Source of the DNA: Escherichia coli
Lineage (GTDB): Bacteria > Pseudomonadota > Gammaproteobacteria > Enterobacterales > Enterobacteriaceae
Assembly: GCF_022846255.1 (NCBI RefSeq)
Contig: NZ_AP025682.1
Length of the DNA stretch: 64,000 bases
Strand: one strand, 5' to 3'
The notes beneath the pieces were generated by a model, which had not been told where the DNA came from, made no database searches, and saw only the letters and a program-made list of their open reading frames with translations. Positions 314-43,163 of this stretch are shown piece after piece (the first letter of the stretch is position 1; the number at the start of each line of letters is the position of its first letter). The translations under genes were made by a program, and so were the position numbers.

Positions 314-736
314 TCATTCGATAGTCTCAAAATATTCCACCTGCAGAGAATCACGGTGCTCAATGATGCAATAACGCTGGAAATTATTTGCATAATCACT
401 TTTATCATGAAAAAACCATATACAATCGTTTTGTAGACTCGGTCCCATTCTTTTCAAAAAATCTATTAGCTTTGCTTTCTGAAGAAAAATGTTATCTATA
501 TTTCGCCATGTAACAATCACTCTTGTTTGCATATCATCAACATTATAGTAATAGCTATACTCGGCTACGTTTGATATGTTTGGCAAATTTCGCAAACTCT
601 CTGGCGTATAAAGGAAAAATGGGGAAAGTTCATGCTGTGTATAGTGATGTTCCTTTGACATCAATGAGATATAAGCATAGAAAAATATAAAGAATAAAAC
701 TAAAAATGATAATAAAATATAAATATATTTTGACAT
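314..736 (-). CDS. Hypothetical protein, 140 aa, with N-terminal hydrophobic transmembrane/signal-anchor segment; candidate immunity or accessory membrane protein
   Basis: ORF track; N-terminus MSKYIYILLSFLVLFFIFFYAYISL is a clear hydrophobic helix; ATG lies 6 bp after stop of upstream ORF (operon-like); no homolog recognised. Confidence 0.6.
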   Translation of the reverse strand: MSKYIYILLSFLVLFFIFFYAYISLMSKEHHYTQHELSPFFLYTPESLRNLPNISNVAEYSYYYNVDDMQTRVIVTWRNIDNIFLQKAKLIDFLKRMGPSLQNDCIWFFHDKSDYANNFQRYCIIEHRDSLQVEYFETIE

Positions 737-742
737 CTCTAC

Positions 743-1594
743 TCACGACCTGTGCGGATAATGAGGGTTTAAGAAAAGAAAAAGCGGTCTTTCAAAGGGA
801 GATTCTGAAAACTTTATAGCTCCCGAACTTGATAATGAACTATACAACTCATGATTTATTCTGTTTTTATCTTTATAATAATTAGTAACAGGTCTATTAT
901 TATATTGATTATATAACAATGTTGAAAAAGACTCATCTAATGGCTTTATATAATTTAACCATTCTGGAAGCTTCTTTTTTATTAGTTGATTTTTTTTAAA
1001 AGGAGGATGGGTTGTAAATAAGAATGGCGTAAACTCAGTATTTTTAAAATTCCCTGGCGCTCCATATGTATCCCATATTTGTAAGGCTTTTGTGTAAGAT
1101 AAAGGTTTTGCCAATAAAAGTGGATCGGGGCCTGTTCCAAATACACGATAAAAACCAATCAAGTCTGAGACTAAATCTTCTGCACTAAATCCGCTATCAG
1201 TATACCAGTTAAAAATAAATGAGTTTTGCCATGCTTCAAACCTCTTCGCAGTTCCATACATTAACGTTAAGGCAACTCTTGCTTTAAGAGTGGGTGAAAG
1301 ACATGAACGAACCATAACCTTCGTATAAACACCGGTATGAAATGTAAGATCTACTCCTAATATTTTTTTCCGAATTCCCATTTCCTGATGATAATCAACA
1401 GGAAAATACCAATCATGAAATTCATCGTAATATGTTGAAAAATGTTCTTGCTCCAATTTTCTTTTTAATATTCTGGCATCTTGTCCCTGAGCATGCCCCA
1501 AATCGATCCAACCTAACTCTTCGGTATAAACTAATCCATACTTTTTCGTTGTTGCAAATATTCCATCAGTAATATCGTTACGTTTTCTCATCAC
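743..1594 (-). CDS. Hypothetical protein ~282 aa (likely true start ATG at 1591 preceded by GAGGGGAG Shine-Dalgarno); no signal peptide; family not recognised
   Basis: ORF track (283 aa from GTG at 1594, ATG one codon downstream); rc upstream reads ...ttgaggggagattgtgatgaga; AT-rich codon usage atypical for E. coli core genes. Confidence 0.6.
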   Translation of the reverse strand: MMRKRNDITDGIFATTKKYGLVYTEELGWIDLGHAQGQDARILKRKLEQEHFSTYYDEFHDWYFPVDYHQEMGIRKKILGVDLTFHTGVYTKVMVRSCLSPTLKARVALTLMYGTAKRFEAWQNSFIFNWYTDSGFSAEDLVSDLIGFYRVFGTGPDPLLLAKPLSYTKALQIWDTYGAPGNFKNTEFTPFLFTTHPPFKKNQLIKKKLPEWLNYIKPLDESFSTLLYNQYNNRPVTNYYKDKNRINHELYSSLSSSGAIKFSESPFERPLFLFLNPHYPHRS

Positions 1595-6503: not shown

Positions 6504-6509
6504 GTAGCC

Positions 6510-6695
6510 GCATCAGGTATGTAACGCCTGATGCGACGCTGACGCGTCTTATCAGGCCTACACGCTGCGATTTTGTAGGCCGGATAAGCAAAGCGCATCC
6601 GGCATTCACCGCCTGATGCGACGCCGACGCGTCTTATCAGGCCTACACGCTGCGATTTTGTAGGCCGGATAAGCAAAGCGCATCCGGCACGAAGG
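6510..6695. repeat. REP/BIME cluster (two tandem copies of ~75-bp unit with gccggatgcg-type palindromes)
   Basis: Direct repeat of tgatgcgacgc(t/c)gacgcgtcttatcaggcctacacgctgcgattttgtaggccggataagcaaagcgcatccggca seen twice. Confidence 0.85.
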
Positions 6696-6702
6696 AGTCA
6701 AC

Positions 6703-7398
6703 ATGTTAGAAGATCTCAAACGCCAGGTATTAGAAGCCAACCTGGCGCTGCCAAAACACAACCTGGTCACGCTCACCTGGGGCAATGTCAGCGCCGTTGA
6801 TCGCGGGCGCGGCGTCCTGGTGATCAAACCTTCCGGCGTCGACTACAGCATCATGACCGCTGACGATATGGTCGTGGTCAGCATCGAAACCGGTGAAGTG
6901 GTTGAAGGTACGAAAAAGCCCTCCTCCGACACGCCAACTCACCGGCTGCTCTATCAGGCATTCCCGTCTATTGGCGGCATTGTGCACACACACTCGCGCC
7001 ACGCCACCATCTGGGCGCAGGCGGGTCAGTCGATTCCAGCAACCGGTACCACCCACGCCGACTATTTCTACGGCACCATTCCCTGCACCCGCAAAATGAC
7101 CGACGCAGAAATCAACGGTGAATATGAGTGGGAAACCGGTAACGTCATCGTAGAAACCTTCGAAAAACAGGGTATCGATGCAGCGCAAATGCCCGGCGTG
7201 CTGGTCCATTCTCACGGCCCGTTTGCATGGGGCAAAAATGCCGAAGATGCGGTGCACAACGCCATCGTGCTGGAAGAAGTCGCTTATATGGGGATTTTCT
7301 GCCGCCAGCTTGCTCCGCAGTTACCGGATATGCAGCAAACGTTGCTGGATAAGCACTATCTGCGTAAGCATGGCGCAAAAGCCTATTACGGCCAGTAA
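6703..7398 (+). CDS. araD: L-ribulose-5-phosphate 4-epimerase
   Basis: 231 aa [41 protein letters not shown]... Confidence 0.96.
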
Positions 7399-7401
7399 TG
7401 A

Positions 7402-7417
7402 CTGTATAAAACCACAG
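7402..7417 (+). promoter_or_regulatory. LexA (SOS) box CTGTATAAAACCACAG upstream of polB
   Basis: CTGT-N8-ACAG consensus seen directly; polB (dinA) is a known SOS gene. Confidence 0.7.
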
Positions 7418-7432
7418 CCAGTCAACCAAAAC

Positions 7433-12906: not shown

Positions 12907-13566
12907 ATGGGGATGGAAAACTACAATCCGCCGCAGGACCCCTGGCTGATTGTCCTGTATCAGGATGACCATATTATGGTGGTCAACAAGCCGAGCGGTT
13001 TGTTGTCTGTGCCGGGGCGTCTGGAAGAGCACAAAGACAGCGTGATGACGCGCATTCAGCGTGATTATCCGCAGGCAGAATCGGTGCATCGTCTGGATAT
13101 GGCTACCAGCGGCGTGATTGTAGTGGCGCTGACCAAAGCCGCGGAGCGGGAGTTAAAACGCCAGTTCCGCGAGCGCGAGCCGAAAAAACAGTATGTGGCC
13201 CGCGTCTGGGGGCATCCATCCCCTGCGGAAGGTCTGGTGGATCTGCCGCTGATTTGCGACTGGCCAAACCGCCCGAAACAGAAAGTCTGTTACGAAACAG
13301 GTAAACCTGCGCAGACGGAGTATGAAGTGGTGGAATATGCGGCGGATAACACGGCAAGAGTGGTGTTAAAACCGATTACCGGGCGTTCGCATCAGCTGCG
13401 TGTGCATATGCTGGCGCTGGGCCATCCGATTCTCGGCGATCGTTTTTATGCATCACCAGAAGCGAGAGCAATAGCACCACGTTTGTTGCTACATGCAGAG
13501 ATGCTGACGATTACCCATCCGGCGTATGGCAATAGTATGACGTTTAAAGCACCAGCGGATTTTTAA
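12907..13566 (+). CDS. rluA: rRNA/tRNA pseudouridine synthase A
   Basis: 219 aa ORF MGMENYNPPQDPWLIVLYQDDHIMVVNKPSGLLSVPG... Confidence 0.95.
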   Translation: MGMENYNPPQDPWLIVLYQDDHIMVVNKPSGLLSVPGRLEEHKDSVMTRIQRDYPQAESVHRLDMATSGVIVVALTKAAERELKRQFREREPKKQYVARVWGHPSPAEGLVDLPLICDWPNRPKQKVCYETGKPAQTEYEVVEYAADNTARVVLKPITGRSHQLRVHMLALGHPILGDRFYASPEARAIAPRLLLHAEMLTITHPAYGNSMTFKAPADF

Positions 13567-13589
13567 TAGTCACGCTGGCGAAGTTCGAT

Positions 13590-13680
13590 AGGCCGGAGAA
13601 GGCGTTCACGCCGCATCCGGCAATTTTGCGCCGATTGCCTGATGCGACGCGGGCCGCGTCTTATCAGGCCTACACGTTGA
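13590..13680. repeat. REP element(s) between rluA and djlA
   Basis: gccgcatccggca...gcctgatgcgacgc...cttatcaggcctacacg palindromic units. Confidence 0.8.
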
Positions 13681-13683
13681 AAC

Positions 13684-14499
13684 TTATTTAAACCCTTTCT
13701 GCTGCTTTATCAGCTCATAGGCCTGCTGAATTTCCTGCGCTTTCTGCTTCGCCATCTCCATCATCTCTGGCGGCAAACCTTTCGCCACCAACTTATCGGG
13801 ATGGTGTTCACTCATCAGCTTACGGTAGGCACGTTTGATGGTGGTCGCATCATCCGTCGGCTTCACGCCCAGCACATTACAGGCATCTTCCAGCGTCGGG
13901 CCACGCTGCGCTTGCTGCCAGTTACCACCGCCAGATTGCTGCTGATAACCGCCGCCAAACTGTGCACCGCCCTGCATCATGCGCAAAAACTGGTCAAACT
14001 GGGCGCGGGAGATGCCTAACTCTTCGGCAATGACATACAGCACCGCCCGTTCATTCGGGTGCAGTGAACCATCAGCAAACGCCGCCTGAATCTGGATCTC
14101 CAGAAACATACGAATTAAGTCAAAACGACCAAAGCAGACACTGCGAAACTGGCGCATCTTTTCGCGCAGCGGGTAATTGTCTGATTTTCCCACCCGGAAT
14201 GCATTTTGCGCCGCAGTACGGGAAGCGCCATGCAGATTCATTCGGTCCATCAACTGACTGGCGATATGAATATCAGCCTCCGTGACGCGACCTTTGGATT
14301 TGGTTAAATGGCCCATCACTTCAAAAGTGGTGGCAAAAAACAGCGCCTGACGCTCACGCTGGTTGGCGAACCACGCCATTTTACGGCTACGGGCTTTATC
14401 AAACATATGGCCAATTAACAGGCCCAATACTACGCCCCAAAAGCCGCCGCCCATTATTAAGGCCACGGCCACGCCAATGATTTTTCCCCAATACTGCAT
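13684..14499 (-). CDS. djlA: DnaJ-like co-chaperone DjlA (271 aa; ORF track extends N-terminally)
   Basis: Protein from [38 protein letters not shown]... to J-domain (HPDK) at C-terminus. Confidence 0.93.
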
Positions 14500-20640: not shown

Positions 20641-21489
20641 ATGGCGACATACCTTATTGGCGACGTTCATGGTTGTTACGATGAACTGATCGCATTGCTG
20701 CATAAAGTAGAATTTACCCCTGGGAAAGATACCCTCTGGCTGACGGGCGATCTGGTCGCGCGCGGCCCGGGTTCGCTGGATGTTCTGCGCTATGTGAAAT
20801 CCTTAGGCGACAGCGTACGTCTGGTGCTGGGTAATCACGATCTGCATCTGCTGGCGGTATTTGCCGGGATCAGCCGCAATAAACCGAAAGATCGCCTGAC
20901 ACCGCTGCTGGAAGCGCCGGATGCCGACGAGCTGCTTAACTGGCTGCGTCGCCAGCCTTTGCTGCAAATCGACGAAGAGAAAAAGTTGGTGATGGCCCAC
21001 GCAGGGATCACGCCGCAGTGGGATCTGCAGACCGCCAAAGAGTGCGCGCGCGATGTAGAAGCGGTGCTGTCGAGTGACTCCTATCCCTTCTTCCTTGATG
21101 CCATGTACGGCGATATGCCAAATAACTGGTCACCGGAATTGCGGGGGCTGGGAAGACTGCGTTTTATCACCAACGCCTTTACCCGTATGCGTTTTTGCTT
21201 CCCGAACGGTCAACTGGATATGTACAGCAAAGAATCGCCGGAAGAGGCCCCTGCCCCACTGAAACCGTGGTTTGCGATTCCTGGCCCCGTTGCTGAAGAG
21301 TACAACATCGCCTTTGGTCACTGGGCATCGCTGGAAGGCAAAGGTACGCCGGAAGGTATTTACGCGCTGGATACCGGCTGCTGCTGGGGTGGTACATTAA
21401 CCTGCCTGCGCTGGGAAGATAAACAGTATTTTGTCCAGCCGTCGAACCGGCATAAGGATTTGAGTGAGGGAGAGGCGGTAGCGTCTTAA
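20641..21489 (+). CDS. apaH: Bis(5'-nucleosyl)-tetraphosphatase (symmetrical) ApaH
   Basis: 282 aa [46 protein letters not shown]... (metallophosphoesterase motifs GDVHG, GDLVARG, GNHD). Confidence 0.95.
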
Positions 21490-21800
21490 ATCCCGTCGAG
21501 CATAAAATCTAATGCTCCTTTAATCAACGTTCGGTGCGCGCTGGCATCGCAAAATTTCGTTCCCAGCGCGTTAACTGGAACAGTTGCAGTCTCATGCGTC
21601 ATGAGCACATATTCTTTGCCGTCTACCAGTAAAAGGATTGGGTTAAGCCGTTCTGGTGGGCGAATACGGCTAAATCGTTCAATAGGTGTTAATGGAATAA
21701 CGATACGGCGATTAATCTCACCAATAATGTCGCTGGTAACATCAATAACAAAGGGAAACGCGGCGTTCCTGCCGCGACTGCGGTATACCGTAAATTGCAT
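21486..21800 (-). CDS. ccdB: CcdB-family toxin (gyrase poison), chromosomal copy
   Basis: 104 aa [37 protein letters not shown]... aligns with F-plasmid CcdB ([33 protein letters not shown]); immediately downstream of ccdA. Confidence 0.85.
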
Positions 21801-21802
21801 CG

Positions 21803-22036
21803 CTAGAAGCTCCGGTACTCATCAGAGAAACATCCGGTTTCATCAGCCAATTGATTTAACGCAGCGATAGCTTCTGCGTTCTCTTCACGCCAACGTGTTG
21901 CTGCATGTTTTTTAAGTTCAGCATTGAGCGCAACCGTAAGGGTGGCGCTCATATTTAAGCCTGCATCACGAGCGCGATTGACTAACTCACGGTCGACGGT
22001 GACGGTCACACTTTGTGTGGTACGTTTTGCAGTCAT
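21803..22036 (-). CDS. ccdA: CcdA-family antitoxin
   Basis: 77 aa MTAKRTTQSVTVTVDRELVNRARDAGLNMSATLTVALNAELKK...; 2-bp gap to ccdB. Confidence 0.8.
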   Translation of the reverse strand: MTAKRTTQSVTVTVDRELVNRARDAGLNMSATLTVALNAELKKHAATRWREENAEAIAALNQLADETGCFSDEYRSF

Positions 22037-22121
22037 GATCTCGTGCTCCTGTACAATTTATACGTCTAGTATACACGGATATCTGCACGTATCAGTGATG
22101 CCGGAATTCTAATATACAAAA
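22037..22121 (-). promoter_or_regulatory. Putative ccdAB promoter/operator (short palindromes TGTACA, GTATAC)
   Basis: ctgtacaatttatacgtctagtatacacgg immediately upstream of ccdA start; exact operator not verified. Confidence 0.4.
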
Positions 22122-24647
<2,526 letters not shown>

Positions 24648-42834: not shown

Positions 42835-43163
42835 TTTATTTGCATATTAATTCACAATGATGACGTAAATCAATGCAAATCTGCTTACCGACGAATTTCT
42901 GGCAAACGGCGGCATTCTGGAGATATGGGCGCTAAAAGTCAACTTAATGGCGGGATTTTTTATATTATTTTGTGGCTCATGCATGTTTTACAGGCATTAA
43001 GCGACAAAAAGATCATATAACATGTTCTGGAAAACGCTTGCGCAGCAAGAAGATTGCATGAAATCAAAATGAGCAGAAAAAAGTGGACCAAATGGTCAAA
43101 ATTTACATTAAAACAACAAAAACAGAATGCAAAACATATAATTTTCAGCATTTGCATTAAATT
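42835..43163 (-). promoter_or_regulatory. carAB upstream control region (AT-rich, tandem P1/P2 promoters regulated by pyrimidines/arginine per established knowledge)
   Basis: 329-bp AT-rich non-coding tract upstream of carA; individual operator boxes not mapped here. Confidence 0.5.

Follow-up and report, generated by a model that had tools for sequence, protein, structure and literature searches.

A ccdO157-type CcdA/CcdB pair, very probably an intact toxin-antitoxin operon, in the apaH-folA gap of a CFT073-like Escherichia coli chromosome

What are the two small genes that lie between the core genes apaH and folA in this Escherichia coli chromosome, and what could be their role for the cell? 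We analyzed a stretch of 64,000 nucleotides, hereafter called the window, in which a preliminary description had pointed to two short open reading frames of 77 and 104 amino acids, both on the minus strand of the apaH-folA gap. Both are indeed present in the list of open reading frames and in the sequence. The upstream one, ccdA, encodes a CcdA-family antitoxin of 77 residues (21803..22036, minus strand; WP_000125566.1) and is followed by ccdB, which encodes a CcdB-family toxin of 104 residues (21486..21800, minus strand; allele G10/E28, WP_001160966.1). The ccdA stop codon is located 2 nt ahead of the ccdB ATG, the junction being TAGCGATG, and this order of antitoxin then toxin with a 2-nt spacing is canonical. 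On one side, folA (22122..22601, minus strand, 159 residues) lies upstream of ccdA on the same strand, 85 bp off. On the other side, apaH (20641..21489, plus strand) converges on the pair, and the stop codons of apaH and ccdB have in common the tetranucleotide TTAA at 21486..21489, in agreement with the convergent 4-bp overlap announced beforehand. The end coordinate 22121 given in the preliminary description includes the ccdA leader, an 85-bp segment running from the folA stop to the ccdA ATG (22037..22121, minus strand) and a candidate promoter/operator region.

We then considered whether or not the two products belong to the CcdA and CcdB families. The 104-residue protein scores 110.2 bits against the Pfam CcdB family PF01845 (cut-off 28.6, E 6e-32), with residues 2-103 of 104 aligned to positions 1-101 of the 101-position profile. 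The 77-residue protein, which had been assigned to CcdA on account of its size and position, scores 93.1 bits against the CcdA family PF07362 (cut-off 22.4, E 1e-26) and is encoded directly upstream of ccdB, so that this assignment can be retained. Chance open reading frames are ruled out by these family scores. When the window CcdB was compared with the PDB using phmmer, the best-scoring protein was CcdB from Vibrio fischeri (E 5e-17), followed by CcdB from the F plasmid (E 1.2e-10). The window CcdA could be aligned with F CcdA (2adl) over residues 8-75 with an E value of 9e-6, and similarity to the F proteins is thereby found for both partners. The window toxin and F CcdB are identical at 37 of 101 positions (36.6%) in an alignment with a 1-residue gap; the likeness to F CcdB claimed earlier is therefore real, although the motif string quoted for it was slightly out of register.

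Neither protein reaches the NCBIfam cut-offs for F-type equivalogs, the scores being 61.2 bits against 147 for CcdB (NF010262) and 38.6 against 100 for CcdA (NF010264). The window proteins should thus be regarded as members of the two families and not as orthologues of the F pair. The name given to the toxin in RefSeq, 'CcdB family protein', agrees with this non-orthology.

The AlphaFold2 model of the toxin (pLDDT 84.6) displays a C-terminal helix from residue 87 to 102. A Foldseek comparison of this model with the PDB returned CcdB structures as the best 16 matches (TM 0.80-0.90, rmsd 1.8-2.7), MazF being first seen at rank 17. Superimposition of the model on the F and V. fischeri CcdB structures gave TM values of 0.86-0.90 and an rmsd of 1.8 Å. 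As modelled, the toxin is predicted to possess the CcdB fold.

The next point concerns the relation between this pair and the ccd systems already known from E. coli chromosomes. The window CcdA is 100% identical to CcdA from O157:H7, and CcdB is identical to its O157:H7 counterpart at 102 of 104 positions (98%), the window protein having G10 and E28 and that of O157 S10 and V28. The ccdO157 system (ECs0052/ECs0053) also shares with the window the folA-apaH gap, the order, lengths and spacing of the genes and the overlap with the apaH stop, and its upstream region is identical to that of the window with the exception of 1 nt. At this same locus, the pair is annotated in O157:H7 F1273, Sakai, CFT073, IAI39, Nissle 1917 and A20. 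In CFT073, Nissle 1917 and strain A20, both CcdA and CcdB are identical to the window proteins, and the ccdAB systems of the B2 strains CFT073, Nissle 1917 and AIEC NRG857c occupy the same locus without any difference from the window at the protein level (PMC7232551). Judged by its position and by these identities, the window pair is the already described chromosomal CcdA/CcdB system of the ccdO157 type, as had been suggested from the outset together with the remark that it would be known and not novel. The description of ccdO157 is reportedly due to Wilbaux and colleagues in 2007 and to Mine and colleagues in 2009. As a discovery the locus has thus little weight, since the description of the system dates from 2007-2009, RefSeq annotates it at this place, and exactly this pair of proteins has been studied in Nissle 1917.

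The gap between apaH and folA had been described beforehand as empty in K-12, which turned out not to be the case. In a three-way alignment of the window, O157 and K-12, a ccd islet of 623 bp (21491..22113) stands in place of the REP-type sequence that fills a 77-bp gap in K-12, and a REP sequence has been reported in the K-12 apaH-folA gap (PMC7232551, PMC3184786). The DNA of the islet looks foreign in its composition: the GC content is 46.5% over 21490-22121, and GC3 is 0.43 for ccdB and 0.42 for ccdA versus 0.61 for both apaH and folA. A search for terminal direct or inverted repeats and for target-site duplications at the islet ends revealed none longer than 7 nt, and the islet thus bears no signature of mobility.

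Does the islet tell us anything about the strain? A comparison of the window with four references across roughly 45 kb, none of them representing phylogroup D, gave identities of 99.10% for CFT073 (B2), 97.58% for IAI39, 97.12% for K-12 and 97.09% for O157 Sakai. In the genome collection, the top matches over 20 kb, among them A0 34/86, reach 99.5%. Together with the 99.1% observed with CFT073, this best match suggests a related but distinct strain. An O157 background for the strain is ruled out by the identity of the flanks (97.1% with O157 Sakai versus 99.1% with CFT073). Thus ccdO157 is hosted by O157, whereas the window pair has a CFT073-like host background and, as indicated by its flanking DNA, the strain is CFT073/Nissle-like and not EHEC. 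The idea that the islet marks the strain background consequently holds only in part. It can be used as a marker in so far as it excludes K-12-like (A/B1) backgrounds, but it is not a marker of EHEC or of the O157 lineage, since it is present in 2021 out of 5426 complete E. coli genomes and its flanks are here CFT073-like. Taken with these flanks, the islet points to a CFT073/Nissle-like B2 lineage with an intact toxin, unlike UTI89-type lineages.

These 2021 genomes, in which the full islet occupies the apaH-folA gap, amount to 37% of the set, the islet being missing from the other 63%, and some form of ccdB is found in 2024 of the 5426. To describe the allele classes we relied on BLAST identity bands and on 60 evenly spaced rows of the ranking, and the figures are thus estimates and not a full census: ccdB DNA 100% identical to that of the window was found in 14 of the 60 rows, a ccdB span of 302 bp instead of 315 in 7, all of them in the 90-95% identity band, a span of 316 bp in 4 and a ccdB fragment in 1. 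The 90-95% band, which corresponds to the 13-bp-deletion class, comprises 261 of the 2024 ccdB-positive genomes. In the 302-bp class, a 13-bp deletion in codons 61-65 brings a stop into frame, as in NMBU_W05E18 where the gene is annotated as 'frameshifted', and in the 316-bp class one T is added after codon 40, as in UTI89. In both cases (UTI89, NMBU_W05E18) ccdA is intact and identical. Frame-breaking indels in ccdB hence affect about 20% of the sampled carriers, which agrees with a preprint reporting truncated CcdB in 19 of 52 STs. The ccdB copy of the window is intact and has not yet decayed. Its exact sequence occurs on at least 1000 contigs, and likewise that of O157.

Being full length, could the window CcdB also be an active toxin? 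Saturation mutagenesis of F CcdB has assigned Q2, F3, Y6, S22, I24, N95, W99, G100 and I101 to the gyrase site (PMC5062330). The equivalent residues in the window protein are Q2, F3, Y6, S23, I25, D98, D102, G103 and I104, 7 of the 9 being identical. Both N95 and W99 are replaced by D; V. fischeri CcdB likewise has D at the first of these positions but T at the second, where the O157 allele has D as well. The C-terminal gyrase contacts are consequently conserved in part: the F triad W99-G100-I101 becomes D102-G103-I104, in which the glycine and the isoleucine are kept and the tryptophan is lost. The same D is found in the O157 allele and again in the plasmid-borne CcdB homologues of Hafnia alvei and of Klebsiella aerogenes, which end in DFMLDG(I/V), and we thus consider D102 as a trait of the subfamily and not as a sign of decay.

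This substitution deserves attention because two papers on AIEC have invoked 'W99D' to question whether CFT073-type CcdB is toxic (PMC7232551, PMC11205521), the second of them, a review from 2024, considering that this protein is not established as a bona fide toxin. However, O157 CcdB carries the same D and is described in reviews as toxic and gyrase-targeting, with a gyrase affinity 5-fold lower than that of F CcdB (PMC5543033); according to reviews, resistance to the O157 allele is conferred by GyrA R462C (PMC10886550, PMC5543033). The W99D argument therefore does not single out the window allele. This could be a useful clarification for the field, as only two positions separate the CFT073-type protein from that of O157. 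The residues found there in the plasmid outgroups are G10 and D28, which the window states match or resemble, suggesting that G10/E28 is the ancestral-like combination and S10/V28 of O157 the derived one. Considering its residues, we find it probable that the window CcdB is active as a toxin.

Comparison with better known relatives helps to place the pair. The prototype, CcdA/CcdB of the F plasmid, has in common with the window pair both protein families, the toxin fold (TM 0.86-0.90 to 1x75, 2vub and related entries), the operon order, a promoter-region GTATAC palindrome and the 7 identical gyrase-site residues. On the other hand, the window system is chromosomal, its proteins fall below the equivalog cut-offs, and its toxin shares only the 36.6% identity given above with F CcdB and has D in place of both N95 and W99. 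Reviews further distinguish chromosomal ccd from F ccd by the lack of post-segregational killing, a lower affinity for gyrase and a CcdA that does not neutralise F CcdB. Much closer are the plasmid-borne ccdO157-like pairs of H. alvei (NZ_CP015380.1) and of a K. aerogenes IncFII plasmid (NZ_CP139388.1). Like the window pair, they encode proteins of 77 and 104 residues with a 2-nt spacing, and they resemble it by a CcdB identity of 74% and 71%, respectively, by the DFMLDG(I/V) C-terminus and by the last 12 residues of CcdA (ETGCFSDEYRSF), which are the same as in the window. They differ from it by their location on plasmids and by an upstream operator with another palindrome (GTGTAAGTTACAC-type). 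As for the chromosomal CcdB of V. fischeri (2kmt, 4ely/4elz), it comes from another genus and is about 37% identical to the window toxin, but resembles it in lacking W99 and in having D at N95, and it is a gyrase poison for which GyrA14 complexes have been solved. Its genomic context is a superintegron.

The ccdA leader is conserved in O157, IAI39 and CFT073. It contains on the minus strand a sigma-70-like site with a 9/12 match, composed of a -35 element CTGATA (22095-22090), a 16-nt spacer and a -10 element TATACT (22073-22068); promoter-like sites are as numerous in this region as chance would predict, and this one was retained solely for its position and its overlap with a GTATAC motif. 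This motif, a perfect palindrome at 22069-22074, overlaps the predicted -10. It is followed 11 bp downstream by GTATAA (22063-22058), and then by TGTACA (22055-22050), which abuts the ribosome-binding site with its Shine-Dalgarno sequence AGGAG (22050-22046). In the 64-kb window GTATAC occurs 8 times for 8.0 expected, the expectation in 85 bp being about 0.01. In the F ccd operator this hexamer forms the core of the CcdA site and is present in one perfect and two imperfect copies; F CcdA alone binds weakly and with low sequence specificity, and CcdB increases both its affinity and its specificity (PMC5389731). The palindromes of the window leader are absent from the H. alvei and K. aerogenes homologues, which have their own different palindrome at the same place.

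An intrinsic terminator scan found no terminator between folA and ccdA and none after apaH on the plus strand. Read-through from folA may therefore add to ccdAB transcription, and read-through from apaH would be antisense to ccdB. Three terminator-like matches fall within ccdB and on the same strand as this gene; their number is what chance would give, and they were not counted as features. The O157 operon is transcribed and its expression increases 5.3-fold on entry into stationary phase (PMC2241611), and the operon of AIEC NRG857c, which encodes identical proteins, is induced by bile salts, acid and macrophages (PMC7232551).

Altogether, these data make it very probable that the locus is an intact chromosomal type II toxin-antitoxin operon of the ccdO157 CcdA/CcdB type, carried by a horizontally acquired 623-bp islet present in about one third of E. 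coli. By analogy with characterized ccd systems, a CcdB dimer would bind GyrA and trap gyrase in a cleavage complex, and the C-terminal segment of CcdA would bind CcdB and thereby neutralise it. CcdA would itself be degraded by Lon, as reported for O157 CcdA, whose sequence is identical to that of the window protein (PMC5543033). The CcdA-CcdB complex could in turn repress the operon through the short palindromes of the leader, that is GTATAC over the -10 and, 11 bp further downstream, GTATAA. For the host, the islet would most likely be a weakly toxic, largely neutral selfish element that does not stabilise DNA and whose toxin is slowly lost in many lineages. The O157 system, for its part, has been described as devoid of post-segregational killing and as playing a role in persisters (PMC5543033), and elsewhere as unable to stabilise a plasmid and degenerating (PMC2654758).

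One could wonder whether the module has already decayed, CcdB being no longer toxic and CcdA alone still working as an antitoxin or a repressor, so that the islet would be a harmless remnant. The frequent loss of the toxin with the antitoxin kept, seen in UTI89, in NMBU_W05E18 and in roughly a fifth of the sampled carriers, and the truncations in 19 of 52 STs of the preprint go in this direction, as does the D found instead of W99, a residue important for killing by F CcdB; the toxicity of the CFT073 allele is also left undecided in a review (PMC11205521). We nevertheless find this improbable for the window copy: its ccdB frame is full length, 7 of 9 active-site residues are those of F CcdB, D102 belongs as well to the O157 allele described as toxic and gyrase-targeting, G10 and E28 are outgroup-like states, and the allele is very widespread. 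A benefit for the host is a somewhat better candidate, even if in our opinion still rather unlikely. An intact ccd would then be kept for tolerance or persistence, for biofilm formation or because it shapes gyrase and topoisomerase IV alleles. In favor of it, drug tolerance and persisters are attributed to chromosomal ccd in work by Gupta from 2017 known through reviews (PMC5543033), and biofilm was reduced when ccdAB was silenced in Nissle 1917, whose two proteins are those of the window (PMC8230891). The induction of the operon in AIEC by bile salts, acid and macrophages, and in O157 in stationary phase, would fit as well, and a 2021 preprint associates the presence of ccdAB on the chromosome with non-QRDR mutations of the topoisomerases and with fewer mutations of the GyrA S83X kind, associations that its own authors consider as confounded by phylogeny. 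Yet a strong general benefit is difficult to reconcile with the frequent independent losses of ccdB and with the absence of the islet from 63% of the genomes, a degenerative process is attributed by a review to Mine 2009 (PMC2654758), and no feature of the window bears on such a benefit.

The selfish-islet reading should also be confronted with two defensive roles. Some type II toxin-antitoxin systems defend bacteria against phages, and this general precedent is what an anti-phage abortive-infection role for the window pair would rely on. Such a role seems extremely unlikely, as neither protein was matched in PADLOC-DB at E <= 0.01 and no defence genes are found alongside, the islet being alone between core genes. 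The other possibility, which we hold as very unlikely, is that chromosomal CcdA would act against addiction by guarding the cell from post-segregational killing by a plasmid ccd. Which antitoxin neutralises which toxin matters here, and Wilbaux and colleagues (2007) are said to agree with neutralisation of the chromosomal toxin by F CcdA, a direction that we follow over the opposite claim. Indeed, two reviews state that F CcdA is able to neutralise the chromosomal toxin but that chromosomal CcdA has no such effect on F CcdB (PMC7354431, PMC5543033), whereas according to a third one chromosomal CcdA neutralises F CcdB (PMC10886550). Plasmid homologues of the same subfamily do exist in H. alvei and K. 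aerogenes, with their identical CcdA C-terminus, and speak in favor of this role. However, matching plasmid systems are very rare: among 4498 ccdB-bearing PLSDB plasmids, 5 have a CcdB at 60-80% identity and the others are below 60%. As a tentative suggestion that we consider as quite doubtful, intact B2-type ccdAB may be kept by selection, either through an interplay with type II topoisomerase alleles by which quinolone resistance would be constrained in its evolution, as the 2021 preprint suggests, or through protection from the rare plasmid ccdO157-like systems, and read-through from apaH could serve as an antisense damper of the toxin.

Finally, the contents of the locus vary between strains. 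In other strains the apaH-folA gap contains a DUF4291 gene, a hypothetical gene and a 45-residue CcdA remnant. This plasticity of the locus, with the toxin as the first part to decay, matches the picture attributed to Mine and colleagues (2009), whose abstract reportedly gives 69% of active pairs and 29% of inactive toxins with an active antitoxin. Variants of ccdB are also found in Escherichia fergusonii.

ApaH is 282 residues long in the window and in every strain examined that bears either ccd or a DUF4291 gene in the apaH-folA gap, versus 280 residues in K-12. Its C-terminal stretch comprises 12 residues in the window, against HKDLGEAAAS in K-12. At the nucleotide level, the apaH 3' end (21456-21489) carries a 6-bp indel and several substitutions immediately upstream of the junction with the islet, the 623-bp ccdA-ccdB insert. 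From these differences, we infer that the 3' end of apaH was also remodelled by the event that filled the apaH-folA gap.

The stop codons of apaH and ccdB overlap, and a scan of the plus strand downstream of apaH (21486-21800) detected no terminator-like structure. Read-through transcripts from the surA-pdxA-rsmA-apaGH cluster would be antisense to ccdB. Within ccdB itself, a second perfect copy of GTATAC, the palindrome that overlaps the predicted -10 element of the ccdA leader, is found at 21783-21788, where it covers codons 5-6 (Val-Tyr). The islet thus holds two of the eight GTATAC copies of the 64-kb window. The copy within ccdB may be a mere consequence of the conserved Val-Tyr codons.

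Reviews contradict one another as to which CcdA neutralises the toxin of the other system when the F and chromosomal ccd pairs are compared. One reports that chromosomal CcdA is protective against F CcdB (PMC10886550), whereas according to others the chromosomal toxin is neutralised by F CcdA, and only in that direction (PMC7354431, PMC5543033). We also noticed, outside the window, an 834-kb E. coli "plasmid" entry in PLSDB (CP054241.1) with an apaH-ccdB arrangement and a CcdB identity of 98%; this record probably represents a chromosomal fragment rather than a case of plasmid-borne ccdO157.

Other segments of the window are also variable among E. coli strains. Between yabI and araC, the window has a segment of about 1.9 kb (160-2101) that is shared with CFT073 and missing from K-12 and O157 Sakai. 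It contains two minus-strand ORFs of 140 residues (314..736) and 283 residues (743..1594). The CFT073 annotation splits the longer ORF into two shorter CDSs and places an IS630 remnant next to the pair of ORFs. Pfam and PADLOC searches with both ORFs gave no match. In the polB-araD interval (7425-7429), the window is devoid of the IS200C copy present in CFT073; the flanks of this junction match CFT073 at 96.5% over 6509-7425, which is lower than the remainder. The djlA-rluA gap is another variable spot, occupied by yabPQ in K-12 and by espY1 in O157 Sakai, and window positions 13566-13686 in this gap are unaligned to both genomes. In the same gap, the Rfam model of the nucleoid-associated REP-type RNA naRNA4/CssrE has a match on the plus strand (13591-13670, 77 bits). 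Rfam also matched the ES003 sRNA over its full length at 42855-42907 on the minus strand (87 bits).
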